DNA of 64,000 bases, from the NCBI GenBank assembly GCA_040005235.1, contig JBDTZG010000004.1, positions 1-64,000 on the forward strand, in the 5' to 3' direction. The position numbers and the translations under genes are program-made. Source of the DNA: Acidobacteriota bacterium. GTDB taxonomy: Bacteria; Acidobacteriota; Thermoanaerobaculia; Multivoradales; UBA5704. Under the pieces are notes generated by a model. It was not told where the DNA came from. It worked only from the letters and a program-made list of their open reading frames with translations, and did no database searches. Shown in pieces: positions 1-46,858 of this stretch. The stretch's first letter is position 1. Each line of letters starts with the position of its first letter.

Positions 1-87
1 CAGGCTCAGTGGACCTGAACCTCAGGAAAACGGCCCTTCTGCCACGGGCTGCTAGAGAGGTGAGAGCCTTCAGTCCTGGCGCCGCCG

Positions 88-265
88 CTCGGCGAATGGC
101 GACCGGGATCGAGCCTCTGGGCGCCGCCGCGATCCTCCGCCAGCATCCGTTCACCGAGCCGGTCAAGACCAAGAGGTCCCCCGCGCCGTGGGTCCACGCC
201 GCAAGCAAGAGGGTCCGAACCGAGGTCAAGATCGCCTGTCCTGGTGGCTGCGGTTCCGCGTTTCG
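88..265 (+). pseudogene. C-terminal fragment of HUH/Y1 transposase plus start of its 3' end region
   Basis: Encodes ATGIEPLGAAAILRQHPFTEPVKTKRSPAPWVHAASKRVRTEVKIA, matching the C-terminus of 3449..4396. Followed by CCTGTCCTGGTGGCTGCGGTTCC, similar to 4443-4466. Confidence 0.85.
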
Positions 266-285
266 ACGCTACGGTCCGACGCTTG

Positions 286-564
286 TCAGACCAACTCGAT
301 CTGAAGTTTCCGCCCAACCAGTGCCGCCGCCCGCTGCAGCGTGGAAAGCGTGACATCGCGTGTGGGGTCCAAAAGTCTGTCGACTTGCGATCGGCTGGTT
401 CCAAGCAGCGTGGCAAGGCGAGACTTGCTAAGTGACCGTGCCTGCATTGCGTCAGTCAGCTGCCACACGACAACTTCTTTGATGGCGAGGGCTTGATTTT
501 CCTCGAACGTCCCTTCCTCTCTGAGGAAGTCGTCAAGGGTGCTGCCGTGATGTCGCTTGCTCAT
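286..564 (-). CDS. XRE/HTH antitoxin (HigA-like), orphan
   Basis: HGSTLDDFLREEG ... TSRSQVDRLLDP ... VTLSTLQRAA is typical of HTH antitoxins paired with Gp49/RelE toxins. Confidence 0.8.
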   Translation of the reverse strand: MSKRHHGSTLDDFLREEGTFEENQALAIKEVVVWQLTDAMQARSLSKSRLATLLGTSRSQVDRLLDPTRDVTLSTLQRAAALVGRKLQIELV

Positions 565-614
565 GATTTCAACTCCTTCAGGCGCTTCCGCGCAATAGCG
601 AGATCATTGCTCAG
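561..614 (-). pseudogene. C-terminal tail of a RelE/Gp49-like toxin
   Basis: Reads LSNDLAIARKRLKELKS-stop and overlaps the antitoxin ATG (ATGA). The rest of the gene is absent. Confidence 0.55.
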
Positions 615-740
615 TCATGGCTCACCACGAATCACGTGTACCACGAAAGGTACATCGCCGGCAAGGCCATCGGAGGGCGGGGAAGCAAGCCTGGCGCTGG
701 TCGCGCCCTTTCCGGGGCACCTATTCCCGCTCCACTCAGT

Positions 741-1061
741 TTATGCAGCAGCGGCGGTCACGCGGAGTTTGACCTGGGTCTTCTTCTGAAGCGCGCTAAT
801 GATCGAGAAGAAGTTCTCGGTGCTCGGGTTTCCGTTCGGCCCCAGCATCCGGTGCAAGCTCTTGCTTGGGGTGGCGATTTCGGCCGCAAGGCCTTCGAAA
901 CCGATGGTTGCATTGACGAGGTCGCGCAATACCGCCCTTCCCTCCGCAGTCTGGCCGGCAAGGAATGCGTTGATCGCCTCGCTGAAAAGGGCTTCGCGGA
1001 AGCGGGGGTCGCTGCCAGCGCGAGCCACGATGGTTTCCTTGAAATCCCGTGTCAGTGCCAT
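741..1061 (-). CDS. Addiction-module antidote / HTH antitoxin
   Basis: MALTRDFKETIVAR ... KSLHRMLGPNGNP; lies directly downstream of the killer gene. Confidence 0.8.
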   Translation of the reverse strand: MALTRDFKETIVARAGSDPRFREALFSEAINAFLAGQTAEGRAVLRDLVNATIGFEGLAAEIATPSKSLHRMLGPNGNPSTENFFSIISALQKKTQVKLRVTAAAA

Positions 1062-1085
1062 GTCAAACTCCTCGCTGTTAGAACC

Positions 1086-1418
1086 TTAGGGCCGTTTCTT
1101 GCGCCGTTTATAATCTGCCCAGCGGCCTTGCGCTATCGCAATCGCGTCCTGCTGCCGTTGCTTGCTGCTTCCCCCGAGCAAGATCACGAAGCGATTCCCG
1201 TCCTTCCCAAAGTAGATGCGATAGCCCGGTCCAAAATCGACCTTTCGCTCGAAGACTCCGGAACCGACCCCTTTGACGTTCGAGAAGTTGCCGGCTTCCA
1301 ATCGGTAGAGAGCCATGGCTACCTTCGCCGCCGCTTCGGCGCTCAAGTTGCCGAACCATGCTGCATGAGGTGAGGAGCCTCGCTCATCAAGGTACTCAAA
1401 AAGCTCAATCGGCAGCAT
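1086..1418 (-). CDS. RelE/ParE-family addiction-module killer toxin
   Basis: RLEAGNFSNVKGVGSGVFERKVDFGPGYRIYFGKDG ... ILLGGSSK; ATG at 1418. Confidence 0.85.
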   Translation of the reverse strand: MLPIELFEYLDERGSSPHAAWFGNLSAEAAAKVAMALYRLEAGNFSNVKGVGSGVFERKVDFGPGYRIYFGKDGNRFVILLGGSSKQRQQDAIAIAQGRWADYKRRKKRP

Positions 1419-1467
1419 GAGGTATGGTAACACAAGAGTTACCCAAGATCGGTCCCTCCTTAAACTT

Positions 1468-1552
1468 GGCCGAGCCCTCTGCTCAACGAAGTGATTGTTG
1501 GCGCCCTCGGCCCATGCACAGCGCCTCAATCCGCTCGAAATCTGCGCGCTCT
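1468..1552 (+). pseudogene. N-terminal fragment of HUH/Y1 transposase
   Basis: CTGCTCAACGAAGTGATTGTTGGCGCCCTCGG...CCGCTCGAAATCTGCGCGCTC resembles 3545-3616 and 9505-9575, with indels. Confidence 0.7.
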
Positions 1553-1830
1553 CCCGATTCCCGAAGGAGGCCGGCGGTCGTCCTGTCCCCTGTCGCCCCA
1601 CGAGGATCGGGCTTGTCCTTTGGTTAGGCTGGCACCCAATCCAGGCAGCACCCAATCCAGGCACCCATTCCAGTCCCTTTCACCGAACCGAACTCGTTAC
1701 CGCCGACCTGGATCTCGGCGAGCGGGAGGCGATTGCGCTCGCTCATCTCCTTCGCGCCGATCGGATGCGGGAGAGGGAGCCGGTTATAATGGCTTGGCGA
1801 TCGGCTGTTGCCGATCCGGAGGCCTCTAAC

Positions 1831-2070
1831 ATGCCAAGCTCCGCGACCGTGACGTTTCAGCAGGTTCTGGAGATCGTCGAAGGACTGCCGGAAGACCAGC
1901 AAGGAGAGCTGATCGAGATCGTGCGCCATCGACAGAGAGAGCACCGCCGTGAGACCCTGGCGGCCGGAATCGAACAGGCCCGCGGTGAGTTCGCCCGCGG
2001 AGAAGCTCGGCGCGGCACGGTCGAGGATCTGATGTCGGATCTCGCCGAGAACACCGAGACCAACGAGTGA
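1831..2070 (+). CDS. Putative antitoxin
   Basis: GGAGG RBS; short acidic helical protein whose stop overlaps the toxin start (GTGA). Confidence 0.7.
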   Translation: MPSSATVTFQQVLEIVEGLPEDQQGELIEIVRHRQREHRRETLAAGIEQARGEFARGEARRGTVEDLMSDLAENTETNE

Positions 2071-2351
2071 GAGAGCTGGTCTGGAGCAACACTTTTCGCC
2101 GCGCCTTGCGGCGGACGCTCAAGCGCCAGCCACAGTCCCTCGCCGACATCCAAGCGGCGTTGCGCCTCCTGCAGGAAAATCTTTTCGCCCCCCAGCTCTC
2201 CACCCACAAGCTCAAAGGAAAACTGGCCGGCACCTGGGCCTGCACCGCCGGCTACGACCTCCGCATTCTGTTCGAGCTGGTTCCCAACCCGGAGCGAGTT
2301 GAGGAAGACCTGTTCCTGATCGAAATCGGCACCCACGACGAAGTCTATTGA
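2067..2351 (+). CDS. RelE/YafQ-family mRNA interferase toxin
   Basis: LSTHKLKGKLAGTWAC ... YDLRILF ... IEIGTHDEVY. Confidence 0.85.
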   Translation: MRELVWSNTFRRALRRTLKRQPQSLADIQAALRLLQENLFAPQLSTHKLKGKLAGTWACTAGYDLRILFELVPNPERVEEDLFLIEIGTHDEVY

Positions 2352-2559
2352 AGGCTCCACCAGCTCCGATCGAGACCTGACTACCGCCTAACTAAGACCA
2401 GCTGCAGCTTGCGCTGCCGGCTGCCATTTTCGACCGAGAGCGGTCGTGCTGACCCCTTTCGTCGCTCGAGGATCGGTCCCGTCCTCGGGTTAGGCTGGCA
2501 CCTATTCGGGTTGATCGTTATGACTGCCGAAGTCCCAAAGTCTCGCCGACCGTCACGCG

Positions 2560-3143
2560 GAAGCCACGCGAGCGTTCCCGCGAAGCCACGTAGCATGGGG
2601 GTACGAAGCCACGCCAAACGGGGCTGAAGCAACGCGAACGGACCAAAATCGGCCGCTGGGGCCGGCGAAGCCACCGAGAAATTCGGCGAAGCCACCGAGA
2701 AATTCACTGAAGCCACACATTTAAGGGACGAAGCAACGCTCGGAGCCGGTGAAGCCACGCACATCGCTGGTGAAGCCACTCATCGAATGGCAAAAATTAC
2801 CGAGCCGTCCGCCGGAGTCACCGAGGAATGTGCCAAAATGGCCGGAAAATTCGGTCGATCCACCGATGTGGCGGGTCGACGGCGGGACTTCAGTGAATTT
2901 CTGCGTGGCTTCAGGGGTTTTCTCAGTGGCTTCAGTGAATTTCTCGGTGGCTTCAGCGAATTTCTCAGTGGCTTCAGTGATTTCCTCAGTGGCTTAGGCG
3001 TTCCGCTCTGTGGCTTCACGCCTCGCCGCGGTGAAACCAGCGTTCCGTTGTGTGGCTTCACCGTTCGGCGCGGTGGCTTCACCGTTCTGCCGGGCCGCTT
3101 GAATGATCGGCGCGGCGGCTTCAGCGAATTTCTCTGTGGCTTC
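2560..3143. repeat. Inverted array of 21-bp-period repeats (GAAGCCAC left arm, GTGGCTTC right arm)
   Basis: Left cores at 2560, 2582, 2605, 2626, 2667, 2688, 2709, 2730, 2751, 2772. Reverse-complement cores every 21 nt from 2884 to 3136, some degenerate. Confidence 0.9.
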
Positions 3144-3448
3144 CGGCCGCAACCGAACGACCTTGGCGCCACGACCACTGGTTCGGAGGTTTCGCCGCCC
3201 GCCGGCCTGCAGCGCGGCTCCCCCGTAAAAGATCTCGCGTCTGTCAGGATCTTTTGACACTTAGGTAAGCCCTGCACAATCAGTGCTTTCCACCCGATTG
3301 AATCAGATTTCCCTGGTTACCCCGCAAGATCTTTTGCGGGGTCGGGTCGCTGCCGGGAACTTGATCGCTCGGCGAAAGCCATGCGTTTTCTGTCGTTTCA
3401 CTCGACGCGCCTCGCCTGGCAGGGATTTTGAGATGCCCGGCTGCCGAA

Positions 3449-4396
3449 ATGGCCCGGAAGATCCGATTCACGCCCGAAGGGGGAGCCCTCTACGAGGTGA
3501 CCTGTCGCACGGTCCACAGCCGATTCCTTCTGCGGCCGGGGCCACTGCTCAACGAGATCATCGTTGGCGCGCTCGGCCGAGCGCAGCGCCTCTATCCGCT
3601 GGAGATCTGCGCGCTCATCTTCGCCTCGAATCACTTTCACCTTCTCGCCCGGGCGGAGGACAGCGAGCGCCTGGCCCGCTTCATGGGCTATTTCAACTCG
3701 AAGCTCGCCCGCGAGGTCGCCCGATCGACCGGCTGGCGGGACAAGGTCTTTTCTCGCCGCTACCAGGCGATTCTCGTGAGCGACGAGGAGGAAGCTCAGG
3801 TTGGGCGCCTGGTGTACATCCTCTTGCATGGCTGCAAGGAGAATCTGGTCGCCCGGCCCCAAGACTGGCCGGGGGTTCACTGTGTAACCGCGCTTCTCAC
3901 CGGCCAGCCGATCGAGGGGACCTGGTTCGATCGCACACGGGAATGGGAGGCGCGCTTGTGCGGTCAGGAATTCGGCGCTCGCCAGTTCGCGGAGACCGAA
4001 ACCGTAAGCCTCGCGCCCTTGCCCTGTTTGGCGCATCTCTCGCCCGAGCAGTACCGCGAGCGGATCGCCGAGTTGATCAACACGATCATCGAACAAGCCG
4101 CAGCTCGTCGAGCGGCGACGGGAATCGAGCCTCTGGGCGCCGCCGCGATCCTGCGCCAGCATCCGTTTACCCAGCCGGCCAAGACCAAGAAGTCGCCCGC
4201 GCCGCTCGTCCACGCCGCCAGCAAACGGGTCCGGACGGAGATCAAGAACGCCTACGCCTGGTTCGCCCGGGCTTTCCTAGAGGCGGCGGATTTTCTGCGG
4301 GCCGGAGATCGGCTGGCTCGGTTCCCCGGGGGGAGCTTCCCGCGCGGATTGCCGTTTGTTCGAGCGAGGCGGTTGGCGATCAGCCCAGCGGCGTAG
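3449..4396 (+). mobile_element. Intact HUH/Y1 (IS200-like, RAYT-like) transposase, 315 aa
   Basis: YEVTCRT near the N-terminus, HUH motif SNHFHLL, WRDKVFSRRY, and candidate catalytic Tyr in VYILLHGCKENLV. Confidence 0.85.
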
Positions 4397-4429
4397 GCAG
4401 GACCAGCCGCTTAAAGCCAAAAGGCTTCG

Positions 4430-4660
4430 GATAGCTACGACCGGCTGCCCAGGTGGCTGCGGTTCCACGTTCCGACACCTGGTTCGACCCTCCCGAAGGC
4501 CCTACGAGCTCCGATCTCGACCTGATTTCCACCCAAGACAGGCTGCAGCTCGCGCTGCCGGCCGCCGTTCTCGGCCGGGAGCGGTCGTTCTGACCCCTTT
4601 CGCCGCACGAGGATCGGTCTTGTCCTCGGGTTAGAGTGGCACCTATTCCCGGCACCTATT
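4430..4660 (+). repeat. Conserved 3' end region of the Y1 element ending in hairpin plus GGTTAGAGTGGCACCTATTC
   Basis: Recurs at about 2370-2507, 6251-6482, 8010-8200 and in part 1600-1670. Hairpin CGAGGA-N9-TCCTCG. Confidence 0.85.
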
Positions 4661-4669
4661 TCCGGTGGC

Positions 4670-4945
4670 TCCAAGACTGGCCAGGGGTTCACTGTGTCAC
4701 TGCGCTTCTCACCGGCCAGCAGATCGAGGGGACCTAGTTCGATCGCACACGGGAATGGGTGGCACGGTTACGGGGTAGGGAGGTCGGCGCTCAGTTCGCG
4801 GAAACCGAAGTCGTGAATGTCGCGCCCCTGCCCTGCAGGCAGGATCTTGCGGCAGAGCAATACCGCGATCGGATCGCGGAGTGGTCGTGGCGATCATCGC
4901 CAAGGCTGCCACTCGGCGAGCGGCGATGGGGATCGAGCCTCGGGG
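4670..4945 (+). pseudogene. Internal fragment of the Y1 transposase
   Basis: Similar to the intact gene from about 3860 to 4140, with a stop and deletions; begins right after the end motif. Confidence 0.8.
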
Positions 4946-5000
4946 CGCAAGACTCGCCAGTCCAGGTTGTTGTGATCTAGGATGAAATCGGAGGGACACA

Positions 5001-5276
5001 ATGGTCGTTACGATCAGCCTGCCAGAAGACATCTCTGAATCCCTCGCAGGGCATTGGGGAAACGTGTCTCGCCACGCCCTTGAAGCTATTGCCGTGGAGG
5101 GCTACCGAACGGGCGCTCTGACCGAGACGCAGGTGAGGCGTCTCCTCTGCCTAGAAACGCGGTTCGAGGTCCATGCGCTGTTCAAGGAGCACAGAGTGCC
5201 CCTCCTCTACACGAAAGCCGATCTGGAAGTAGACATCGCCGCCCACCGGGATCTCGGCCTCCTGGCCGGCCGATGA
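5001..5276 (+). CDS. UPF0175-family antitoxin
   Basis: ALEAIAVEGYRTGALT ... RFEVHALFKEH; overlaps the DUF3368 gene (ATGA). Confidence 0.8.
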   Translation: MVVTISLPEDISESLAGHWGNVSRHALEAIAVEGYRTGALTETQVRRLLCLETRFEVHALFKEHRVPLLYTKADLEVDIAAHRDLGLLAGR

Positions 5277-5761
5277 TCGTCATTGCAGACAGCGGGCCGC
5301 TCCACTACCTCATTCTTCTGGACAAGACAGAGCTTCTGCACCGTGTCTACGGGCAGGTCATTGCCCCAGAGGCAGTCCTCAGAGAGTTGACCGTGGCGAG
5401 TGCGCCCCAGCCGGTGAAGGACTGGCTCTCCCTACCTCCTTCCTGGCTGCAGGTCCAAGCGGTGCCTTTCGCTGAAACCGAGCTCGTTACCGCCGACCTG
5501 GATCTCGGTGAACGGGAGGCGATTGCACTTGCTCATCTCCTTCGCGCCGATCTGCTCCTGATCGATGAAGCCGCAGGGCGAGCCGAGGCGCGTCGTCGAA
5601 GCCTGCGAGTGACGGGTACGTTGGGTATCCTTCGGATCGCAGCCGAAAAGGGATGGATCGATCTACCGGAAGTTCTCACTCGCCTGCGCTGTACGAGCTT
5701 CTATGTGAACGAGGACCTGCTCAGGTCGATCTTCGGTCAGTGGCTGGGAGAAGTTGAATAA
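5273..5761 (+). CDS. DUF3368 PIN-domain toxin
   Basis: MIVIADSGPLHYL ... LDLGEREAIALA ... LLIDE ... GTLGIL. Confidence 0.85.
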   Translation: MIVIADSGPLHYLILLDKTELLHRVYGQVIAPEAVLRELTVASAPQPVKDWLSLPPSWLQVQAVPFAETELVTADLDLGEREAIALAHLLRADLLLIDEAAGRAEARRRSLRVTGTLGILRIAAEKGWIDLPEVLTRLRCTSFYVNEDLLRSIFGQWLGEVE

Positions 5762-5774
5762 CCGAGCTCAGATA

Positions 5775-6484
5775 GGTGGCGCGGCCAAGAATTCGGCGCT
5801 CGACAGTTCGCGGAAAGCGAAACCGTAAGCCTCGCGGTCTTGCCCTGTTTGGCGCACCTCTCGCCCGAGCAGTACCGCGAGCGGATTGGCGAGTTGATCA
5901 ACACGATCATCGAACAAGCCGCAGCTCGTCGAGCGGCGACGGGAATCGAGCCTCTGGGCGCCGCCGCGATCCTGCGCCAGCATCCGTTTACCCAGCCGGC
6001 CAAGACCAAGAAGTCGCCCGCGCCGCTCGTCCACGCCGCCAGCAAACGGGTCCGGACGGAGATCAAGAACGCCTACGCCTGGTTCGCCCGGGCTTTCCTA
6101 GAGGCGGCGGATTTTCTGCGGGCCGGAGATCGGCTGGCTCGGTTCCCCGGGGGGAGCTTCCCGCGCGGATTGCCGTTTGTTCGAGCGAGGCGGTTGGCGA
6201 TCAGCCCAGCGGCGTAGGCAGGACCAGCCGCTTAAAGCCAAAAGGCTTCGGATAGCTACGACCGCCTGCCCTGGTGGCTGCGGTTCCACGTTCCGACACC
6301 TGGTTCGACCCTCCCGAAGGCCCCACGAGCTCCGATCTCGACCTGATTTCCACCCAAGACCGGCTGCAGTTCGCGCTGCCGGCCGCCGTTCTCGGCCGGG
6401 AGCGGTCGTTCTGAGCCCTTTCGCCGCACGAGGATCGGTCTTGTCCTCGGGTTAGGCTGGCACCTATTCCGGGCACCTATTCCG
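5775..6484 (+). pseudogene. 3' half of the Y1 transposase plus end region, near-identical to about 3965-4660
   Basis: Direct repeat at offset 1821, identical over most of its length. Confidence 0.9.
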
Positions 6485-6612
6485 GCAGATCGATCTCCCT
6501 GAAGTCCTCGCTCGCTTGCGCCGTACGAGCTTCTATGTGAGCGAGGACCTGATCCGGTCGATCTTCGGTCGGTGGCTGGGGGAAGTTGAATGATCGGCCG
6601 ATAGAAATTGAT

Positions 6613-6921
6613 AGCCGCGATCCTCCGGCAGCAACCGTTCACCCAACCGGCCAAGACCAAGAGGTCCCCCGCGCCGTGGGTCCACGCCGCCAGCAAGAGG
6701 GTCCGAACCGAGGTCAAGATCGCCTACGCCTGGTTCGCCAGGGCTTTTCGAGAAGCGGCGGAGAATGCGGGCCGGCGATCGACTGGCTCGGTTTCCCCGG
6801 GGTTGCTTTCCTCCCGGTCTGCCGTTTGTCCGAGCGGATCGGTTGGCGATCGGGCCCGATCTATTGCGGCGCCGAGCGCCGAAGGCTGGGCGGGGTCGGG
6901 CCGCAGGTTAAGGTGGCACCT
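6613..6921 (+). pseudogene. Y1 transposase C-terminal fragment and end motif
   Basis: AAILRQQPFTQPAKTKRSPAPWVHAAS, frameshifted; GGTTAAGGTGGCACCT at 6906-6921. Confidence 0.8.
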
Positions 6922-6952
6922 GTCTGGCGCGCCTCAAGCGGCGTCCCGCGCC

Positions 6953-7144
6953 TCAAGCGGCGTCCCGAGAATTGCTTTCGCTAGCTTCACCATGGCCTTC
7001 TGGCCCATAGATCAGCCGTCCCTTAAACTGTGCCTGCAACTCCTCGTAGTGGGCAATCAACCGAGCCGGATCGTTACCGAACTCCCGCGAAATCTCGCTA
7101 CGGATCTTTCGGACCGCGGCGAGAGCCGGATCATCCTTGGTCAT
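6953..7144 (-). CDS. Small putative antitoxin downstream of the PIN toxin
   Basis: MTKDDPALAAVRKIRSEISREFGND; overlaps the 3' end of the toxin gene. Confidence 0.65.
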   Translation of the reverse strand: MTKDDPALAAVRKIRSEISREFGNDPARLIAHYEELQAQFKGRLIYGPEGHGEASESNSRDAA

Positions 7145-7616
7145 CGCTGCCTCCAAGCATTTCAAGCGGAGTGACGAGAGAGGGACTCAAGAGTCCGAGA
7201 AGGCTATTAACACGTCGGATATGTCCGAACTTGTTGGCGTTCGCCAGGTGCTTGCAGTTCCACGTCACGAGAAAGTCACAGCGGTGGTAGGAAGCGAGAG
7301 CCAGGTGCAGCGCGTCCCCCGCAGGATCCGCGGGCATAACTTGGTGGCGAATGTACCCCGCAACGATTTCGAGGACTGCCGGTTCGATAGCCAGAGCAGG
7401 AAGTTCTGCTACCAAATCAAGGCAGGCCTGCCGCGACGGAAAGTCCCCCCTCCCCAGTTCTTCGACGACGGCCAGGCTCGTAACCAACTCGACCGTGTCT
7501 GAGGCCCGGGCCCACCACTCGCGTGTCCACTCGCGACGCGCCACCATCTCAGCCTCCGGCCTCGTTTCGAAGTAGAAGCTGGGGATCGAAGTCTCCACGT
7601 ACGCGCGGCTTCTCAT
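7131..7616 (-). CDS. PIN-domain (VapC-like) toxin
   Basis: AYVETSIPS ... DALHLALAS ... DFLVTWNCKHLANA. Confidence 0.85.
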   Translation of the reverse strand: MRSRAYVETSIPSFYFETRPEAEMVARREWTREWWARASDTVELVTSLAVVEELGRGDFPSRQACLDLVAELPALAIEPAVLEIVAGYIRHQVMPADPAGDALHLALASYHRCDFLVTWNCKHLANANKFGHIRRVNSLLGLLSPSLVTPLEMLGGSDDQG

Positions 7617-7696
7617 GAGAGCCTCAGTCTACCGCGCGGCGGCGGAAGCTCAATCAGGGATAACGAGTAGAGTGTCTCCCGGCCTCTGATGTCGCC

Positions 7697-8205
7697 TCGG
7701 CGAGTGGTGACGGGAATCGAATCTCTGGGCGCCGCCGCGATCCTCCGGCAGCATCCGTTCACCCAGCCGGCGAAGACCAAGAAATCCCCCGCGCCGTGGG
7801 TCCACGCCGCCAGCAAAAGGGTCCGAACCGAGGTCAAGATCGCCTACGCCTGGTTCGCCAGGGCATTTCGAGAAGCGGCGGAGAATCTGCGGGCCGGCGA
7901 TCGGCTGGCTCGGTTTCCCCGGGGTTGGTTTCCTCCCGGTCTGCCGTTTGTTCGGTTGGCGATCAGGCCGGCCACCTAGACCAGGGCCAGCCGCCTATCC
8001 CAAATCTTCAAATCGCTACGACCGCCTGTCCTGGTGGCCCCGCAGGCTCCGAGAGCGGCATGATTTCGCCTAAGACCGGCCGTAGGTCGCCCTGCCGGAG
8101 TCAGTTTTCGTCCAGGAAGCGGTCGTCCTGTCTCGTCGTCGCACGAGGATCGGTCTCGTCCTCGGGTTAGGATGGCACCTATTCGGGCCACCTATTCGGC
8201 ACCTG
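7697..8205 (+). pseudogene. Y1 transposase C-terminal fragment plus end region
   Basis: TGIESLGAAAILRQHPF ... FPPGLPFV; GGTTAGGATGGCACCTATTC at 8165-8184 followed by tandem variants. Confidence 0.85.
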
Positions 8206-8328
8206 CTCCCGCGTGGCTCAGAGAACGGCGGGGGCGACCAGCAGGCAGCGCCTTTGATTTTGTGGCGCGTGTGATTAAACCTTAAGCGACGCCGATAACG
8301 AAGAAGGATAAGTGGAAATATTTAGCCA

Positions 8329-9111
8329 GTGAGAAACTTAGCGGCGCGAAGAAGAGCCTGGGTCAAGGCGGGGCAAAGAACGCGCCCGAGGAGGAATCTC
8401 GCTCTGCTCTATGGAGTTCTCTACCTAGCAACTATTCCTGTCTTTGCAGCGATCTACACTCGATTGCCACGAGGCTTTTACCATGCAACCGCTAGGCACG
8501 AGATCGGAGCAATGCAGGCGAGGGTTGAGGCCGGAGCGGACGTTCTAGGATGGTTGCAAGGTGTGGTGATGGATCAGAGGTTGTACGTTTCAGGAATAGG
8601 CGACCTCGGAACGAATCCCGAGCTTGTAGGGATGAATCTGAAGGCGTCGGTGCATTTTTTTGGCGGTGGTGAGGAAGGGAAGATAGCAGAGCGTAATGTC
8701 GATATAAGCATCGCCGAGCGTGGATTTGTCTTGGGCATGAAAGGTGGCAGGATAGGTGCAATATATGTAGTGAAAATTAATGCTGCTGGCAAGACAATCA
8801 ATGATTTGAGAGAGATTTTTAAGTGCAGAACGGGGGAAAGTGACTCGAGCATTTGCTGTGTCGAGATGCCAGTCGAGGTTGCTGAGTCTATCGAAACATT
8901 AGACCGAGTGGAGGCGGGTTTTCCCGCCGAAAGCGGAAGTTTCGAGCGGATGCTGTACTTGAGTGCTGTGATTGCAACTACTGTGGGATTCGGTGATATT
9001 GTGCCACTGACGGTTACCGCCAGAACCGCAGTGGGAATCGAGGCTGTTCTCGAGATCATCCTGATTGGGCTGTTTCTGAACGCGCTTGCGACGAAGGCAG
9101 GCGGGCCCTAG
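8329..9111 (+). CDS. Two-TM potassium-channel-family protein
   Basis: C-terminal pore motif YLSAVIATTVGFGDIVP plus a TM helix; visibly AT-richer than the core genes. Confidence 0.75.
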   Translation: MRNLAARRRAWVKAGQRTRPRRNLALLYGVLYLATIPVFAAIYTRLPRGFYHATARHEIGAMQARVEAGADVLGWLQGVVMDQRLYVSGIGDLGTNPELVGMNLKASVHFFGGGEEGKIAERNVDISIAERGFVLGMKGGRIGAIYVVKINAAGKTINDLREIFKCRTGESDSSICCVEMPVEVAESIETLDRVEAGFPAESGSFERMLYLSAVIATTVGFGDIVPLTVTARTAVGIEAVLEIILIGLFLNALATKAGGP

Positions 9112-9408
9112 CTAGCTCAGCTAGGGGGCCCGCCCCCGGAAGGTGCCATGCGATCCTAGAAGCTCGAATCAGAGACGCCGACTCGCCCCCCGCAAAAGAT
9201 CTGGCGGACCGTCAAGATCTTTTGCACCCCCTGCCGCGCAGAGAGGAATCGGCGGGGATTTCCTCGATCGTCGCCTCGGCTTTGGCCAGATCCCTTGCGC
9301 CTCGGACGGACACTCAGCTCCGGCGCGACGACTCTAAGTTGCTGCTTCTCATGCAGCTAGCCCCTAGTGGGCAGATTGGCACTGACCTTGAGTTGCTGGC
9401 AGACTGCC

Positions 9409-10347
9409 ATGCCTCGCAAGATTCGCTTCACGCCCGAAGGCGGCGCCCTTTACGAGGTCACCTGCCGCACGATCCAGAGCTGATTCCTGCTGCGGCCGAG
9501 CCCTCTTCTCAACGAGGTCATCCTCGGCGCGCTCGGCCGCGCTCAGCGACTCTACCCGCTCGAAATCTGCGCGTTCTTCTTCGTTAGTAATCACTTCCAC
9601 CTCTTGGCGCGCGCAGACGACAGCCAGCGCCTCGCCAACTTCATGGGCTATTTCAACTCCAAGCTCGCCCGAGAGGTGGGTCGGCTGACCGGCTGGCGCG
9701 ACAAGATCTTTGCTCGCCGCTACCAGGCGATCCTGGTCAGTGAAGAAGAGGAAGCCCAGGTCGGGCGCTTGCTCTATCTGCTCTCTCATGGCGCCAAGGA
9801 GAACCTGGTCGCCGACCTTCGGGAGTGGCCGGGCGTTCACTGCGTCGATGCCCTTCTGACCGGTGAATCTTTGGAAGGCACCTGGTTCGATCGGACGGAG
9901 GAGTACACCGCCCGCCAGCGCGGCGGGGAATTCGGCGCCCGCGAATACTCCAGCGCCGAGACCGTCGCGTTGACACCCCTGCCCTGTTGGGCCGACCTCT
10001 CGCCGGAGGAATACAAGGCGCGAATTGCCGATCTCCTTGAAGCGATCGTCACCGGAGCCGCCAATCGGCGATCGGCGACGGGGATCCAGCCGCTCGGCCG
10101 GGCCGCGATCCTGAGCCAGCATCCGTTTTCCCAGCCCACCAAGACCAAGAAGTCGCCCGCCCCGCTCGTCCACGCCGCCAGCAAGCGCGTCCGCACCGAG
10201 ATCAAGATCGCCTATGCCTGGTTCGTGAGGGTATTCCGGGAAGCAGCCGAGTACCTGCGCGCCGGGGACCGCCTCGCCCGATTCCCGAAGGGGAGCTTCC
10301 CTCCCGGTCTACCCTTCGTCCGAGCGGCGGTCGGCCCGGCGGGTTGA
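9409..10347 (+). pseudogene. Full-length Y1 transposase with one in-frame stop
   Basis: ATG 9409 (MPRKIRFTPEGGALYEVTCRT); TGA at 9481-9483 where the 3449 copy has CGA; SNHFHLL is retained. Confidence 0.85.
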
Positions 10348-10939
10348 CCGCCGGCGGCGCCGGCCGCTCCACGCCATGATTCATCGCTACGACACAAACT
10401 ATCGGCGGTGCCTACCGCCGAAGGCCGAGCCGCACTCGTCGGCCGTGGTGAAGACCTGCTATTCAATGACTCTCTTCCCGAATGTGAATCGTCGCGACCG
10501 CCGGCTGCCTAAACCGGGACACTCGAACGGCCTTTGAAGCTCTTCTGGCAGAGGGGGATCTGGTTGGCTGCCTCTACTTGGCTGGCACCTCTTGCCGGGC
10601 GCCTATTCCACACCTATTCCGGGCGGCACCTATTCGTGATGGAGCGTTTCTTCCCGATTTCTCGCGTTCTTAGAAGGAAGCGATATCGGAGGTCGCGGTC
10701 GGACGGGAGGTCCCATGGAAGCCAATGGTCTGGTGTCATTGCTGATTGCGGTCATCGGTCTGGTGCTCATGTTCGCTCAACTCAAACTATTCTCGATCGA
10801 CAGCAGCTTAAAGCGGATTGTTGATCTGCTCGAACGCGGCGCCAAAGAGGAAGGGAGGGGGCCGTCCGGAGATTAGGCTGGCACCTATTCCGGGCTGTTG
10901 GCTGCCTCTACTTGGGTGGCACCTCTTGCTGGCGAACCA

Positions 10940-11095
10940 CGTGAAGGCGATCTTCATCGCGGTCCGAACCCGTTTGCTGGCAGCGTGGACGAGCGGCGCA
11001 GGCGATCTCTTGGTCTTGGTCGGCTGGGAGAACGGGTGCTGTCGGAGGAAGGCGGTCCGGCCGAGTGGCTCGATTCCGGTTTCGGCTCGGCGAGG
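10940..11095 (-). pseudogene. Inverted Y1 transposase fragment
   Basis: Reverse strand resembles the TGIEPLGR ... QHPFSQPTKTKRSPAPLVHAASKRVRT segment. Confidence 0.75.
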
Positions 11096-11130
11096 GTCGC
11101 TCTCGGTTAAGCTGGCACCTATTTTGGCAC

Positions 11131-11721
11131 CTATTTTGGGCTTGAAATCGGTGTACGTTCTTGCCCTTCAGGCACCACCTCGGAGGTGGCCTGACCGGTG
11201 GCCAGGCCCTCGTGCATCCACGCGTCCGACCGTTCAGTCGGTGACGCATTGTAGGGCGGCAGCGAGTTCATGAACTGAATGAAATCAGAATCGAATTGAG
11301 ATGAGAGTTCGAGATCCCAAGCCCGTCTGAAATTGGAACGCGAGAGCCACCAGCGCATATAGTCGCACCACCCGGTCCATTGTTTGTTGGCTGGATCAGG
11401 ATGCCCACGGTACAAGAGAAATGCCTGTTCCATGACCGAAACCAGTATATTGAAAGCAATCCATTCGCGTTTCACGTCGCGTGGAGTGGACGCCCCAGGA
11501 GAAACGAGATCGTAGATATCGAGTTCCGGATGCTCGAAGCACAACTTTAGGTACTCGATGTATTGATTGTTCGGGGATAAGTAGATCTGAGCCTGCCGCT
11601 CAAACCGCTCTCGACGCTGCTCAAACCAGAAGACCAGAATAGCAATCGGGATACCCAAGAACGTTGCGGCCGAGGCCAGAGCGTCGAGCCAATCCTTGAG
11701 CGCTGAGTCAATTTGCGGCAT
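11131..11721 (-). CDS. Hypothetical membrane-anchored cassette protein
   Basis: N-terminal TM segment, GGGAGG RBS, and GTTAGGC 34 nt upstream on the coding strand. The C-terminus runs into element DNA. Confidence 0.7.
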   Translation of the reverse strand: MPQIDSALKDWLDALASAATFLGIPIAILVFWFEQRRERFERQAQIYLSPNNQYIEYLKLCFEHPELDIYDLVSPGASTPRDVKREWIAFNILVSVMEQAFLLYRGHPDPANKQWTGWCDYMRWWLSRSNFRRAWDLELSSQFDSDFIQFMNSLPPYNASPTERSDAWMHEGLATGQATSEVVPEGQERTPISSPK

Positions 11722-11944
11722 GTGCCTCCCGGTGGCGAAGTATCGCTCTGAATCTGCCTAACGGTCTGACGATAATCACTGTCGCCCCGAGGCCCACGGA
11801 GTGTTTATGCCGCTACCTGGCTCCCTGAGGCCTCGGCATCCCAGAAGGAACTTCCCAGTGGTGCTCTGCGGCTTAGCGTCAAAGCTATGCGAGCTGGCAC
11901 GCCGCGTCAACTCGGAGCTTCGTGACGGAAGGTAACCAGCCGTC

Positions 11945-12240
11945 GTGTAGGCGATCTTCATCTCGGTTCGAACTCGTTTCGCTGGCGGCGTGGACGGGCG
12001 GCGCGAGAAATCTCTTGGTCTCGGTCTGCTGAGAGAACGGGTGCTGTCGGAGGACGGCGGCCCGGCCGAGGGGCTCGATTCCCGTTTCGGCTCGGCGAGC
12101 AGCGGCCTTGGCGATGATCGCCTCGACCAACTCCGCGATCCGCTTGAGGTACTGCTCCGCCGAAAGATCTCTCGCCAGTAGGGCAAGGGCGCGAGACCTA
12201 CGGTTTCGGTTTCCGCGAACTACCGAGTACCGAATTCCTT
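11945..12240 (-). pseudogene. Inverted Y1 transposase fragment
   Basis: DLSAEQYLKRIAELVEAIIAKAAARRAETGIEPLGRAAVLRQHPF. Confidence 0.8.
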
Positions 12241-12563
12241 GTGGCACAGTCGCGCTTCCCCTATTGCGGTCGAAGGCTGGGCGGGTCGGTTCGCAGGTTA
12301 GGGTGGCACCATCGGGGGGGGCACCTATTCGGATCGAGCCGCAGGTTAGGGTGGCCTGGCACTTTTCTTCCGTTGCCTTTGACACCAGGGAGACCCTTGC
12401 TTTAGCATCTGTCACGAATTGAAAATCAAGGAGAATAGGCCCCAGGAAGCGATCGACGTGGCAAGTCTTTGGCGGGCGGCAGTCGAAGCATGTCCCTCTC
12501 TGCCTCCTTAGCCTTTTTCTCCTCAAACCTCCACCTGGCCGACACTAGGCAACTGAGGTAACC

Positions 12564-14201
12564 ATGAACTGGAAGCCGCGGGTGTTCTTCTCGTATGCGT
12601 GGGGAAGTGATGTCCACAATGCTCGCGTTGAGGAAGTTGCCCGACGCCTTCGAGATCGGGATTGCGAAGTCCGCATCGATCGGAGAGACCTTGTGCCAGG
12701 CGACAGCATTCTCGACTATATTGAGGAGTCGCTGCGATGGGCTTCTAAGGTGCTGGTCATGTGTGAGCCCGCCTACGCTGAGAAGGCACGTAAGAACGCG
12801 ACTGGTGTTCGCGACGAGTATACGCTGATCAGGGCCGAGGTTCACCGTGACCGACGAACCCGCCGCATTATCCCAGTCTTGTTGGAAGGGGACGCGGTGG
12901 AGGCCATTCCGGAAGCCCTACAAGATCGCTTTTGGATCGATCTCCGGCGGGACGATTCCGCCGAATTCGGCCACCTCGTAAATACGTGCTTCGATGAGTC
13001 ACAGCGTCGTCCCAACGTCGGACGACCGCAGTTGCCATCGTTCAAGTCACTGGTTGACGCCCCCGATCCTGGTTGCACGCCCGGTGCCCTCCGCTTTCTT
13101 CGCTGGCTCTACGGCGAGAACTCACTGCTGAAGGCGCCATCGGGAGAAGAATTCCCCATTGCTGTCAGGCCCACAGCAAGCACCGACCCTGCCGTGCTGC
13201 CCCGGGCACTAGTTCCAGACAGTTGCGCCTTCGACGTGACGGGTGGCCTAATCGAACGAAGGCGACTCGAGGGAGCGAGACTGTGGGATCAGGCCACTTT
13301 CACACTCCGGAGCGTCACTGATGGAAGCGATGGCCGTATCGAAACAATAGACTGTTCAATCGGCGCGTACTTTGCCGCGGTCAACACTTGTGACGTCCTA
13401 GAAGAGGAACTCAAAGCCATCGGCTTGATGCCTCTAGAAGCAGTGGGCGACTTTCGAAAGGCGTACGAGGGCCTGCCCCTTCGACGGGGCCTCCATCACG
13501 GGAAGGTGGGTGCGACTACGCTGGCAGAAGTTTGGAGTGGTACGGGCAGGAGTGCGGCTATCGCCGTGTCGGTGCTGTTCGTATGTTTTGACGGTGACGA
13601 GTATCGCTTCTACGTTCGACGTCGCTCGCCGACCGTCGCGGTCCACCCGCTCAACTACCACGTGGTCCCTTCGTTCATGTTCCAGCCGATGCTTGTAGGC
13701 CATGAACTAAGTGAATTTAGTCTACGCTATAACGTACTTCGAGAGGTGGCGGAGGAACTGTTCTCACGACCCGAGGGTGGAGGAGCAGAGGAAGGTACGA
13801 CAATCACCACGCCGAAGGACTTGTACTTGCTTCCCGAAGTGGCGGCCCTGGAGTCGCTTCTGGAGTCGGGCGCAGCAGAACTAGTGGTCACTGGTATGTC
13901 GGTGAATCTGCTCAACCTTCGTCCCGAGGTGCTTTGCGTTCTTGTGATTCACGACCACAACTGGTTTCTGGCGTATCGCTCGGAGATTAAGTTCTGCAGG
14001 TTGGAGTACTCGCAGGATTTTCCGATAATGAAGGAGTACACTGTTGCCTTCGACCTATTCGAGGAGGACTTGTTCGAAGCAGGGGGCCCGTTGAAGGCAG
14101 GCAACTGGGTTGCACCAGGAGCCGCTTGCATAATTGCGGGCGTACCTGCTGCGCGGCGATTAGTGAATCAGCACGACCGCAGGGGGTCTGCCGCCTCTTA
14201 G
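12564..14201 (+). CDS. TIR/SEFIR-domain protein with a C-terminal NUDIX-like region
   Basis: RVFFSYAW ... IDRRDLVPGD ... GVRDEY ... IIPVLL (TIR/SEFIR); VRRRS ... LREVAEELF resembles a NUDIX helix. Confidence 0.7.
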   Translation: MNWKPRVFFSYAWGSDVHNARVEEVARRLRDRDCEVRIDRRDLVPGDSILDYIEESLRWASKVLVMCEPAYAEKARKNATGVRDEYTLIRAEVHRDRRTRRIIPVLLEGDAVEAIPEALQDRFWIDLRRDDSAEFGHLVNTCFDESQRRPNVGRPQLPSFKSLVDAPDPGCTPGALRFLRWLYGENSLLKAPSGEEFPIAVRPTASTDPAVLPRALVPDSCAFDVTGGLIERRRLEGARLWDQATFTLRSVTDGSDGRIETIDCSIGAYFAAVNTCDVLEEELKAIGLMPLEAVGDFRKAYEGLPLRRGLHHGKVGATTLAEVWSGTGRSAAIAVSVLFVCFDGDEYRFYVRRRSPTVAVHPLNYHVVPSFMFQPMLVGHELSEFSLRYNVLREVAEELFSRPEGGGAEEGTTITTPKDLYLLPEVAALESLLESGAAELVVTGMSVNLLNLRPEVLCVLVIHDHNWFLAYRSEIKFCRLEYSQDFPIMKEYTVAFDLFEEDLFEAGGPLKAGNWVAPGAACIIAGVPAARRLVNQHDRRGSAAS

Positions 14202-14337
14202 TCACGGCTAGCACGGCAGACCTCAAGTCGGCGCGGTGACAACCCGCCGCCGGACCCGAACCGATCGAGCGGACAGCAAAACGGCGCCTCCGCTCACCGG
14301 CAAAGCCATGACGTGACGCCGAGACAAGGACGGCCAA

Positions 14338-15102
14338 ATGAATCTTGACATCGTGCTTATCGACATGCTGAGGCCGGACGGCGTCCTCACGACGTATAAA
14401 GTTCTGCCGACTGCGGGTCCCAGGGGACTAACGATGGACCGGCTTCGGGACATCCACCCCGAGCGTTTCGGCGACGCCGATCTCGATATCGGAGGCACGA
14501 GGATCTACAACGCGTCGCGTTGCTCGATCGACAAGATCACCTCCAGACTGCGTGCGCTCGAGCTTGGGGCAGACGGGCACTCTTTCCGCTTTCAGTTCGA
14601 GCACATGGGCATACCACTCGGACCTTCTAAAGAGGCGCACGGCGGGGCGTACAACTTGGTACTTCCGCCGGGCTGGCGATGCCGGAGCCTGTTTTTCTCT
14701 GACCCCTACGATCGCAAGCACGAAGATGTCTCGCGCAAGAAGCAGTTCCAGTTCTCCGTGATCTGGGACCCCGATTGTTCAACGCAGTTGGCCGAAATGA
14801 TGATGCGGTCGAGCCGGGGCTCGTTCTCATTCGTGGTCGCAGGCACGGCATCTGTCGTCGCCGCTGACCCCAGCGACACGCAGTACGTAGAGGCCCGAGA
14901 AAGCCAATACTCCGTGGCTCAGCTTACTGACTCGCACCTAATCGACCGCGATGGTCGCGACCGGCTAGCAGCAGAGCTGGCAGAAAAGTCTGAATGGCTT
15001 GAACTCAAACCAAACTTCTTCGGGTTGGGCGTGAATCTGAACGAGGTGGTAAAAGATGCGATCCGGTTCTTTCGGAAGAAGATGATGGATCGCCGGTCAT
15101 GA
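14338..15102 (+). CDS. Hypothetical cassette protein
   Basis: 254-aa ORF with an RBS, flanked by attC-like sequences. Confidence 0.7.
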   Translation: MNLDIVLIDMLRPDGVLTTYKVLPTAGPRGLTMDRLRDIHPERFGDADLDIGGTRIYNASRCSIDKITSRLRALELGADGHSFRFQFEHMGIPLGPSKEAHGGAYNLVLPPGWRCRSLFFSDPYDRKHEDVSRKKQFQFSVIWDPDCSTQLAEMMMRSSRGSFSFVVAGTASVVAADPSDTQYVEARESQYSVAQLTDSHLIDRDGRDRLAAELAEKSEWLELKPNFFGLGVNLNEVVKDAIRFFRKKMMDRRS

Positions 15103-15112
15103 GGAACATCTC

Positions 15113-15176
15113 CCCTAACAACGCCATGCGGCCGACGCCGCTGCATGCCGCCGTTGATGCCGCGCCTCAGTTAGGC
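15113..15176 (+). other. attC-like recombination site
   Basis: CCCTAAC 11 nt after the stop codon and GTTAGGC 57 nt further on, with an imperfect internal palindrome. Confidence 0.55.
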
Positions 15177-15239
15177 GACCAGGCGAACACCTATGATAGT
15201 CCGGCAGCGGTCTGAATCGAGGGGACTACAGGAGTGCCA

Positions 15240-15812
15240 ATGAGCCAGTACGACTTCGAGAATCCAGACCCCGATGAGTCGCCTGCGGAATTCCCGCACG
15301 AGGAAAGAACCCTCGCCCAGTGCCTCGGCGAAACTGTCCTCTGGTTTGAGGAACTTGATGACTAGCTCTCGACGGCGATCTCCTTCCTTTTGCGGCGTGG
15401 CGAGGAAGTGGGACGAATCGTAACTTGCGAACTCTCCTTCAAAGCTAAGGTCAACCTCGTCGAGGTACTCTTCCGCCACGAGAGGCCGGAATCGAAGCAT
15501 TTAGACTCTCTCCGGCAACTCTGCGGCGCCTGCCTCCAGATCGAGCAGCGGCGCAATCAGGTCATGCATTCGAACTGGCGCCCGGTCGTCAATGGCACAG
15601 GCGTTACTCGCCACAAGTACACTGCTCGCGGAAAGCACGGACTTCGTGACCAGGCCGAAGTGCTTTCCCTAAACCAAGTCGAGGCAGTCTGGTGTCACTG
15701 CGGGTTTCTGGGTCATTGCGTGGACGAACTGATGTTCTGGGAGTTCGATGTCGAGTACGGCACCCTCGAGGACCCACCCGAGGTAAGGGCCGCTGGCTAC
15801 CGCATCGACTAA
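15240..15812 (+). pseudogene. Hypothetical cassette gene with a nonsense codon
   Basis: AGGAG RBS, ATG at 15240, in-frame TAG at 15363-15365; the frame continues to 15812. Confidence 0.65.
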
Positions 15813-15895
15813 ACTTGCCAAAAATTTTCCTGAGCACATGCCCCGCTGGCTACCGCATCGACTAAACTTGCCAAAAATTTTCCTGAGCACATGCC
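15790..15895 (+). repeat. Perfect 53-bp tandem duplication
   Basis: CCGCTGGCTACCGCATCGACTAAACTTGCCAAAAATTTTCCTGAGCACATGCC occurs twice in tandem. Confidence 0.95.
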
Positions 15896-15919
15896 CCGTC
15901 GGCTAACCCTGAGCCCAGT

Positions 15920-35718: not shown

Positions 35719-35822
35719 AGAAGAGGGCGGCACCTATTTGGACCCCCTATTCGGACCGGAGCCGCGAGGTTGGAGCCCCAAGCTCGCCCGCTTCATGGGC
35801 TGTTTCAACTCGAGCTCGCCCG
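35719..35822 (+). mobile_element. Y1 end motif plus a tiny transposase remnant
   Basis: AGAAGAGGGCGGCACCTATT, then GCCCGCTTCATGGGCTGTTTCAACTCGAGCTCGCCCGC (compare 3674-3712). Confidence 0.7.
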
Positions 35823-35941
35823 CCAGCAGCGGCGGGGAGTCCAAAGCGTCACCCCTCGCCACTGAAGGTCCCCTGCTCGCCTGAAGAATCGTCCGGAAAT
35901 GGGGTTTCGCCGGCCAGGAAAAGGCAACGCCGCTCGCCAAC

Positions 35942-45238: not shown

Positions 45239-45317
45239 CGCTCATTATTACGACAGCCGCGCTAGCAGCGCAACGATGCAGCGTTCGAGTTTCGCGCCCG
45301 GCCGCCCCAAGGAGGTT

Positions 45318-46672: not shown

Positions 46673-46858
46673 AGAACTCCAGCGAGGTGCCTTGAAGCTT
46701 CCAAGGGCCCCGCCTGCTCCAACCCGAACTCCCTCTCTGCTCGTGTCCGGGTCGAGCAGAGAGATTCTGCACCTTCTGCGATTCGGGTTATTCCAGAACC
46801 GGCTGGCACGCTTTGCTGCGGGCTCTTCTCCCAGAAGAGGATGGCACCTTTTCCGGTT

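Follow-up and report, generated by a model that had tools for sequence, protein, structure and literature searches.

Fragments of a Y1/HUH transposase family, their shared end motif and toxin-antitoxin genes in a variable island of an Acidobacteriota genome

The DNA considered here (the window) comprises the first 64 kb of a 214-kb contig, C35, from the 6.2-Mb genome of a soil Acidobacteriota bacterium, and about 12 kb of it hold 11 pieces of a single transposase family, one working copy and ten broken ones, interleaved with toxin-antitoxin (TA) genes. The pieces were mapped by blastn of a reference element (window 3200-4720), by tblastn of the 322-amino-acid (aa) open reading frame (ORF), and by means of a table of merged fragments; all 11 were recovered where an earlier, sequence-only reading of the window had placed them. 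The cargo named in that reading (four TA pairs, an orphan antitoxin, a K+ channel and a TIR gene) was likewise found between or beside the pieces, with families assigned by Pfam and NCBIfam. Because the contig begins at window position 1, the array is cut at its left side. The features, in nucleotide (nt) positions of the window, are as follows.

45/81-267, + strand: transposase fragment (aa ~212-275), with part of the 3' untranslated region fused to it (blastn, tblastn)
286-564, - strand: orphan helix-turn-helix (HigA-like) antitoxin gene (HTH_37, HTH_26 and HTH_31, all under Pfam cut-offs)
716-727, + strand: solo 12-mer site GGCACCTATTCC (motif search)
741-1370, - strand: TA pair, with a putative antitoxin (741-1061) and a RelE/ParE-family toxin (1086-1370; TIGR02683, 77 bits)
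1468-1672, + strand: transposase fragment aa 36-63 (1468-1551), right-end module (1574-1647) and three tandem terminal 11-12-mers
1673-1763, + strand: internal fragment of a DUF3368 toxin gene, a copy of ~5460-5552, beginning right at the end-motif terminus
1789-2351, + strand: TA pair, with antitoxin (1789-2070) and YafQ toxin (2067-2351)
2350-2508, + strand: right-end module alone; the 8-nt microhomology GAAGGCTC marks its joint with the YafQ stop codon
2550-3200, no strand assigned: block of 21-bp tandem repeats in both orientations
3220-4663, + strand: intact copy, with an upstream region containing palindromes, the gene (3449-4396), a 3' untranslated region and a possible 6-bp hairpin
4667-4948, + strand: transposase fragment aa 145-238, starting 3-4 nt past the preceding right-end terminus
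5001-5761, + strand: TA pair, with UPF0175 antitoxin (5001-5276) and DUF3368 (PIN-like) toxin (5273-5761)
5781-6485, + strand: transposase fragment aa 179-322 and a full right end with two tandem 11-mers
6488-6596, + strand: duplicate of the DUF3368 3' end, directly behind the site
6614-6925, + strand: transposase fragment aa 239-320 (6614-6851), then a degenerate left-end-type motif (6899-6925)
6953-7616, - strand: TA pair, with a putative antitoxin (6953-7165) and a PIN toxin (7131-7616)
7696-8205, + strand: transposase fragment aa 227-321, right end and tandem 11-mers
8329-9111, + strand: K+-channel-like gene with two transmembrane segments (Ion_trans_2)
9135-10635, + strand: second full-length copy, dead, with a degenerate left end at ~9135 and a gene (9409-10347) carrying a TGA
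10871-11149: motif (10871-10890, + strand), then an inverted transposase fragment aa 208-280 (10931-11149, - strand)
11105-11136, + strand reading: left-end motif of the inverted 10931-11149 piece and a tandem 11-mer
11131-11721, - strand: hypothetical 196-aa gene, no family match
11947-12260, - strand: inverted transposase fragment aa 174-266
12282-12355, + strand: two left-end-type motifs and one 11-mer, the last site of the array
12564-15900, + strand: TIR_2 protein (12564-14201), hypothetical gene (14338-15102) and small ORFs, forming variable island DNA that is not site-delimited

The copy at 3449-4396 is the sole intact one in the stretch, since the other full-length copy (9409-10347) carries one in-frame TGA. 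The latter is 76% identical to the reference element over 9377-10335, and the tandem site-like 11-12-mers on its right side (10583-10635) include two within 1 mismatch of the core. At its right end the intact copy bears the motif GGTTAGAGTGGCACCTATTCC and one extra 11-mer, and the expected place of its left-end motif is occupied by the block of 21-bp repeats. The fragment at 5781-6485 is a recent duplicate, being 97% identical to 3960-4665. The sequence-only reading described most copies as 5'-truncated, with the 3' part and the end motif retained, a description that holds in part: five of the 11 pieces are cut at both ends, a canonical end module stands behind six pieces (1468, 2350, 3428, 5781 and 7696, with a degenerate one at 6614), and the two inverted pieces have the motif as a left end. 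Three putative antitoxins, that at 741-1061 included, matched no family in Pfam or NCBIfam.

The transposase is a 315-aa Y1/HUH protein, and its proposed likeness to the REP-associated tyrosine transposases (RAYTs; REP, repetitive extragenic palindrome) is borne out by Pfam, NCBIfam, a structure model and structural matches. It scores 23.2 bits against the Pfam family Y1_Tnp (PF01797; cut-off 23) and 43.3 bits against the NCBIfam RAYT model REP_Tyr_transpos (NF047646), under the cut-off of 80. At least 1,561 homologues are found at E <= 1e-5, most of them 305-315 aa long and many named 'REP element-mobilizing transposase RayT' in IMG. Across 30 aligned homologues, H69, H71 and Y130 are invariant, as are many residues of the 170-aa C-terminal domain, and Tyr130 lies in the context RLxYxLSHGxKENLV; in the intact copy the HUH motif reads HFH and the tyrosine falls within RLVYILLHG. 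The AlphaFold model (pLDDT 83) finds its best PDB match in TnpA-REP of Escherichia coli (4ER8; TM-score 0.65 on target), followed by the TnpA proteins of ISDra2, IS200 and IS608, with Foldseek returning 4ER8, 2XM3, 2F4F and 2A6M at E values of 2e-6 to 2e-4. These matches cover 116-154 columns, the size of a Y1 core, and the 170-aa C-terminal domain is therefore left without an assigned fold.

Complete elements measure ~1.4-1.5 kb and end in terminal inverted repeats of ~21 nt. The left-end motif, GGAATAGGTGCCACCCTAACC (also given as (G)GAATAGGTGCCACCCTAACC), lies ~230 nt upstream of full copies, and the right-end motif, GGTTAGGCTGGCACCTATTCC, lies ~240 nt downstream; the inverse and direct forms bracket full copies in C18, another contig of the same genome, and in L003, L004, L008, L015 and other loci of related genomes. 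Extra tandem terminal 11-12-mers stand behind many ends, and a divergent subfamily with another core, GGCACCTCTCC, has kept such tandem terminal copies, about seven of them in L018. A search with the 11-mer GGCACCTATTC, allowing at most 1 mismatch, returned 17 sites in the window, all on the + strand and 15 of them within 1-12.4 kb, a pattern that is not due to chance. Genome-wide there are 117 such matches, about the chance expectation for both strands, and outside the islands the density is at roughly chance level. Over all sequences compared, the core was counted 159 times in ~1 Mb against ~16 expected, with 125 occurrences on the transposase (+) strand and 34 on the opposite one. The possibility of a genome-wide REP-type repeat was considered and rejected, as the 20-nt motif is not dispersed and is confined to islands on C35, C18 and C4. 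Matches to the transposase by tblastn fall on C35 (19 high-scoring segment pairs), on C18 (5) and, as one weak match, on C8; C4 holds short remnants detected by blastn and motif search alone. A solo motif on C100, considered as a candidate isolated cassette, has two neighbouring ORFs without a Pfam family.

Related genomes, too, contain arrays in which fragments alternate with cargo and the end motif is shared, in support of the sequence-only reading. Among 59 related loci, drawn from one-genome-per-species collections and labelled Thermoanaerobaculia or Holophagales, at least 15 hold clusters of at least four fragments or motifs, and similar arrays were found in many metagenome-assembled genomes (MAGs) and in contigs of 0.25-7.7 Mb. 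The merged fragments of all sequences compared, 131 in number, are co-oriented: 124 lie on the + strand of their locus, and 5 are discordant with the majority at their own locus. Full-length fragments number 34, a further 51 lack the 5' part, 12 lack the 3' part, 25 lack both, and 9 are cut by sequence ends. Truncation is accordingly polar (51 against 12, p = 7e-7), also among secondary fragments, with the longest of each locus dropped (30 5'-truncated against 9 3'-truncated, p = 0.001), a partial correction for the fact that the loci were retrieved by peptide patterns favouring the C-terminal half. In a complete 7.7-Mb relative there are 28 matches, ~17 of them full-length open frames; some copies are isolated, and six groups of 2-4 copies lie within a few kb, each group on a single strand. 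The family is therefore a live, multi-copy insertion sequence (IS) with a tendency to cluster. The earlier reading had regarded isolated IS copies elsewhere, with no enrichment for cargo or the end motif, as evidence against a cargo-array system; such full-length copies do exist in the 7.7-Mb relative, alongside clustered, co-oriented arrays that recur. For the isolated copy in L019, no empty site was found when its 2-kb flank was compared with 41 genomes of the genus, which returned only the source genome itself and one partial match of 77% identity.

Many breakpoints coincide exactly with the outer or the inner edge of the motif. Fourteen junctions join a site to the interior of an element. 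For example, a right end is followed within a few nt by a 5'-truncated transposase at window positions 4667 and 46859 and in L008, L009, L031 and L032, and the junction at 4667 probably recurs in L031 and L032. A right end is followed by truncated cargo at window 1673 and 6485 and in L032, where a HicAB unit is cut to 261 nt between two sites. Left-end motifs are fused to transposase interiors in L015, in L020 and at window 11094. The same cargo begins at a site in two places: homology between the 741-1370 cargo and its second copy (C4 36525-36762, 97.5%) starts exactly at site 716. The YafQ unit (1789-2351) is 97% identical in L034, there directly behind a right-end terminus, and the PIN pair (6953-7616) is 97% identical in L001, with other neighbours. 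Finally, in L018 a stretch of 5' flank 728 nt long, of which 370 nt come from the 3' end of a host gene, stands directly behind a right end and is followed by a second transposase copy. Microhomology is seen as GAAGGCTC at 2350 and as CCGG/TCCG-type overlaps at several junctions; as YafQ is fused to the end module over GAAGGCTC and L034 retains more of the transposase at this place, one truncation at the least arose secondarily, by microhomology deletion. Two junctions recur, with a right end joined to aa 141-145 in three genomes and a site joined to reference position 4315 in three.

The host segment duplicated in L018 (7440-10000, G003) derives from a LanC-like gene, whose 3' end (370 nt) has been doubled together with the element and stands behind the right end of the first copy. 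The two copies are ~92% identical, and the duplication is thus not recent.

Pieces of a group II intron (reverse transcriptase/maturase, 3' end) were observed in the window at 47775-47917 and 48746-49331, in C18 at 17380-18100, and in the relatives L015 (11021-11296), L020 (11124-11240) and L035 (8301-8932). In three loci a 5'-truncated intron piece stands directly behind an end site, with three different truncation points, and the 3' end of the intron (…CCACCCTATTCC) resembles the site. By analogy, this looks like an intron that homes to element ends, as group IIC introns do to integron attC sites, where group II introns have reportedly been encountered (PMC7923331).

Cargo was sampled as 70 ORFs inside the arrays of 17 loci, with 70 ORFs at least 1.5 kb from arrays as a control; the picking of array and flank ORFs was crude, and the resulting family counts are rough. 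The array ORFs matched PIN (7), MazE (3) and FitA-like families (2), along with single matches to HicB, ParE, VapB, UPF0175, an Rv0623-like family, DUF433/DUF5615, NTP_transf_2 and the group II intron reverse transcriptase, and the control ORFs were mostly housekeeping genes with a few defence-type matches. HicB and an AbiEii-like gene were found in the C18 island as well. Sites flank the HicAB-type cargo in some loci, and in L010 it stands without them. To the right of the island, the conserved chromosome starts with a GNAT-like gene, at its stop codon (window 15920); this gene borders arrays in the window, L001, L009, L023 and L028, the adjoining DNA differs in all five, and no site was found at the border in any of them. 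Three segments, 92-99% identical but differently ordered, are common to the window and L001: the PIN pair, the DUF3368 fragment with the YafQ unit, and the block of 21-bp repeats.

Of 136 distinct ends of cargo segments that are shared between contexts, 10 fall no more than 10 nt from a site, against 2.4 expected, a count reached in 1 of 2,000 randomisations. This tally used a strict site definition, excluded the element itself and masked the group II intron, because the resemblance of the intron 3' end to the site would inflate breakpoints near sites. When 68 site-to-site cargo units were compared, none was shared end to end between contexts; apparent shared cassettes among them were rejected, the best pairs all being due to transposase homology. 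Of the proposal that the enzyme builds integron-like cargo arrays, the part concerning position stands, in that several junctions lie exactly at the end motif; for the part concerning capture or movement of cargo as cassettes, no precise transfer of a whole cargo unit was found. The array is indeed free of an integrase, as had been claimed: the genome has only two Phage_integrase (PF00589) matches, on C12 and C5, and no tyrosine recombinase was found on C35, C18 or C4. An Rfam scan of 1-17 kb at E <= 1 gave no match, with attC sites not searched for directly.

Elements of this basic type, in which terminal inverted repeats enclose a Y1 gene, have been published under the names TIRtron and TIRYT (Di Nocera et al. 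2013, PMC3733652); the portions of that paper drawn on here single out a group in Acidobacteria, and those drawn on from Quentin et al. 2018 (PMC6006769) place TIRYTs in subclass 2.1 and link them to long Y1 proteins with C-terminal domains. By its layout, the present family belongs with these elements, sharing a RAYT-like Y1/HUH gene between inverted repeats without REP hairpins, a protein longer than IS200 TnpA with a conserved C-terminal extension, an occurrence in Acidobacteria, and inverted-repeat copies that, in the published cases, can form dimers or clusters. It differs in that the published terminal-inverted-repeat consensus GGGGWSAS does not fit GGTTAGGCTGGCACCTATTCC, and in that the tyrosine motif is Y-x-L-S-H-G rather than the class-2 Y---NP; the truncated arrays alternating with TA genes, the polar truncation and the tandem 11-12-mers are absent from the published descriptions, as far as the same portions extend. 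Full-text literature searches, with supplementary alignments outside their coverage, returned no description of an HUH/RAYT cassette array or of arrays such as these.

Similarities to REPtrons include TnpA-REP (4ER8) as best structural match and a gene with its presumed substrate, in inverted copies, on both sides. A RAYT gene typically occurs once per genome and the REPs in their hundreds, dispersed genome-wide, according to the part of PMC5581495 consulted, whereas the gene here is multi-copy and its motif is confined to three islands. The RAYT model score (43.3 bits against a cut-off of 80) and YxLSHG in place of Y---NP are further differences, and the 6-bp stem that would correspond to a REP hairpin pairs in 79% of cells without covariation support. 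With the IS200/IS605 family (IS608, ISDra2) the element has in common the Y1 HUH fold, the single catalytic tyrosine, multi-copy IS behaviour and strand-specific sites. Ends in that family are non-inverted subterminal hairpins; here, in contrast, inverted repeats form the ends, the protein has twice the length (315 aa versus ~130-150) and there is no tnpB gene. Like integrons and clusters of attC sites lacking an integrase (CALINs), the arrays present series of short, co-oriented sites between TA-rich units of one or two genes, with content that varies at a fixed place and group II intron pieces at sites; unlike them, they have no IntI-type recombinase nearby, their units carry transposase fragments, and most cargo boundaries lie off the sites. 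One fixed and one variable end, co-oriented tandem units and, once (L018), 5'-flanking DNA carried along are reminiscent of IS91, ISCR and Helitrons. The enzymes of those elements are Y2 HUH proteins, with a helicase in Helitrons, whereas the present enzyme is Y1, with one conserved catalytic tyrosine, and complete copies have two defined inverted ends.

Taken together, these data are best explained, with somewhat better than even confidence, by a self-clustering IS of the TIRtron type that has piled up in a variable, TA-rich hotspot, where its end motif drives polar rearrangements. The transposase would nick the strand reading ...CACCTATTCC and leave a 3'-OH at the motif end, and new copies would tend to land beside resident ends. 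Through repeated nicking the motif would become a hotspot of polar rearrangement, with deletions next to it, tandem duplications, and template switching where short microhomologies occur, and TA genes would be reshuffled along with the fragments; TA pairs would persist between the wrecks because they are resistant to deletion, and because the hotspot collects them anyway. Several points weigh against this explanation. About 3 of the 15 left ends of full copies examined lie beside a resident site, and self-end targeting is therefore supported only in part; the polarity counts carry the retrieval bias described above. The recurrent junctions argue for the spread of transposase-less or truncated units, and polar truncation could reflect the survivorship of still-mobile units, as a cassette model predicts. 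The motif core is kept even in subfamilies with 50-60% protein identity, which points to a functional site rather than decay. The subterminal hairpin that recognition of the IS200/REP type would call for is weak: the possible stem in the right end lacks covariation, and shuffled sequences fold just as well, so that the conserved feature is a linear motif. Finally, the data show directly the class of enzyme, the ends, the clustering, the co-orientation, the polarity and where the junctions lie, and from there we infer the nicking at the motif, its strand and polarity, and its causal role. That the island is an HUH cassette platform appears unlikely. On such a model the DNA between two co-oriented sites would be the unit, both sites would be nicked by the transposase on the same strand, and a strand circle would be released and re-inserted at another site, so that TA and other genes would be truly mobilised; Rep proteins of rolling-circle replicons and relaxases use such chemistry to recombine a pair of origins in direct repeat. 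Extended to an integrase-free, single-strand integron analogue in Thermoanaerobaculia, made of a Y1/HUH nickase and its ~21-nt site, with the transposase gene itself a cassette, the proposal is quite unlikely; the strand between co-oriented sites would be copied or cut out and re-inserted at sites, thereby reshuffling TA and defence arrays. A cassette model accommodates the finding that all 15 cores in 1-12.4 kb lie on one strand, whether they bound a + copy on its right or an inverted copy on its left, and that units begin 0-6 nt from a site at 716, 1673, 4667 and 6485. It also fits the same cargo standing behind a site in different contexts (716 and C4 36525; the YafQ unit in L034), the PIN unit standing behind motifs of different type in the window and in L001, and a cargo order that differs between the window and the syntenic L001 at 92-99% identity, the L001 order being seen in another study's contig as well. 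The excess of shared-cargo ends near sites (10 of 136 against 2.4), truncated units that recur behind sites in three genomes each, full copies between direct rather than inverted sites in L039, L019 and L004, and tandem terminal 11-12-mers kept across divergent subfamilies (up to ~7 copies in L018) point the same way. Set against all this, 0 of 68 site-to-site units are common end to end to two contexts, 126 of 136 shared-cargo ends lie away from sites, the HicAB cargo of L010 has no flanking sites, and neither the island border nor the TIR gene is delimited by sites. The right boundary of the YafQ unit differs between the window and L034, a difference explained by microhomology deletion, and circles or empty sites were not seen, in contigs alone, which cannot show rare forms.

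Passive decay, in which an ordinary IS inserted repeatedly in a tolerant island, TA genes persisted by addiction, and homologous recombination, replication slippage and random deletion among the repeats made the mosaic with the enzyme and site uninvolved, is distinctly unlikely. It would account for the location of most homology breakpoints away from sites, for microhomology junctions and internal deletions in cargo genes (DUF3368, and PIN in L031), for the ten dead copies among the 11 in the window, and for a variable island that extends past the last site. Random deletion does not, however, predict the 51:12 polarity, nor does passive decay predict 15 of 15 sites on one strand, the four-fold excess of breakpoints at sites, or junctions located exactly at motif termini in several genomes. 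An assembly artefact, a chimera from a short-read assembler that collapsed or mis-joined repeats, is scarcely credible, although the window begins at a contig end and independent contigs break within the long transposase repeats. Logan contigs, which a different assembler produced from two public runs belonging to a single study, span all unique junctions, with 0 differences over 920-2713, 4605-5919, 6715-7752, 7835-10168 and 10155-15819. The junction between the DUF3368 fragment and the antitoxin is 99.4% identical in L001 (a MAG from another study) and in a third study's contig, a contig from another study's run reproduces the L001 arrangement, and similar arrays occur in the many MAGs and 0.25-7.7-Mb contigs cited above. 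Apparent backward joints in two contigs (X1, X2) proved to be paralogous copies on C18 and C4. At the level of junctions, then, the array is no assembly artefact, and the concern about misassembly raised by the sequence-only reading is answered for the unique junctions, which independent contigs bridge; it persists for the succession of units on either side of the 700-bp repeat of 97% identity, since the contigs break inside the long transposase repeats.

Enzymes of the RAYT/TIRYT type are widespread, and what is known of their effects on genomes largely concerns the spread of REPs and REPINs. The present family provides a concrete, recurrent case in which an end site marks polar rearrangements in TA-rich hotspots. 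If the preferred explanation, nick-driven rearrangement around a self-clustering IS, is true, it would account for the way in which these enzymes mould variable islands; should the cassette model be true, there would be a second, mechanistically distinct route to integron-like arrays. The substrate for a test is simple, consisting of one protein, encoded by the intact gene, and one well-defined 21-nt site.

Further pieces of the family lie in the window at 35783-35826, 40195-40561, 45303-46187 and 46773-47546, two of them behind a site (35729 and 46843), and 47 kb or more of the contig are therefore covered, patchily, by the pile-up. Upstream of the intact gene, in window 3220-3330, the palindromes AAAAGATCT…AGATCTTTTG and CCCCGCAAGATCTTTTGCGGGG are conserved, as they are upstream of the C18 copy and the 9409 copy, and they may represent the operator or promoter region of the element.

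The ~650-nt block of 21-bp repeats, the repeats being GTGGCTTCAGTGAATTTCTCA-like, could encode a heptad-repeat protein on either strand or form binding sites. Related blocks, 65-92% identical, occur elsewhere in the genome on C24 (~13.0-13.2 kb), C54 (23.8-24.4 kb), C7 (49.3-49.9 kb) and C74 (2.7-3.3 kb), and within the arrays of L001 (5551-6143), L009 (2586-3141) and L017 (411-633).

The TIR protein encoded at 12564-14201 is 545 aa long; a TIR_2/SEFIR domain lies at its N-terminus, and the C-terminal 400 aa have no family match. Its gene is followed by that of a 254-aa protein, also without a family match, and from sequence the two may form a defence gene pair in the variable island. Just before the GNAT-like gene, window 15780-15900 contains a direct tandem duplication of ~65 nt (…CCGCTGGCTACCGCATCGACTAAACTTGCCAAAAATTTTCCTGAGCACATGCCC… twice), which yields two overlapping minus-strand ORFs with identical N-termini.

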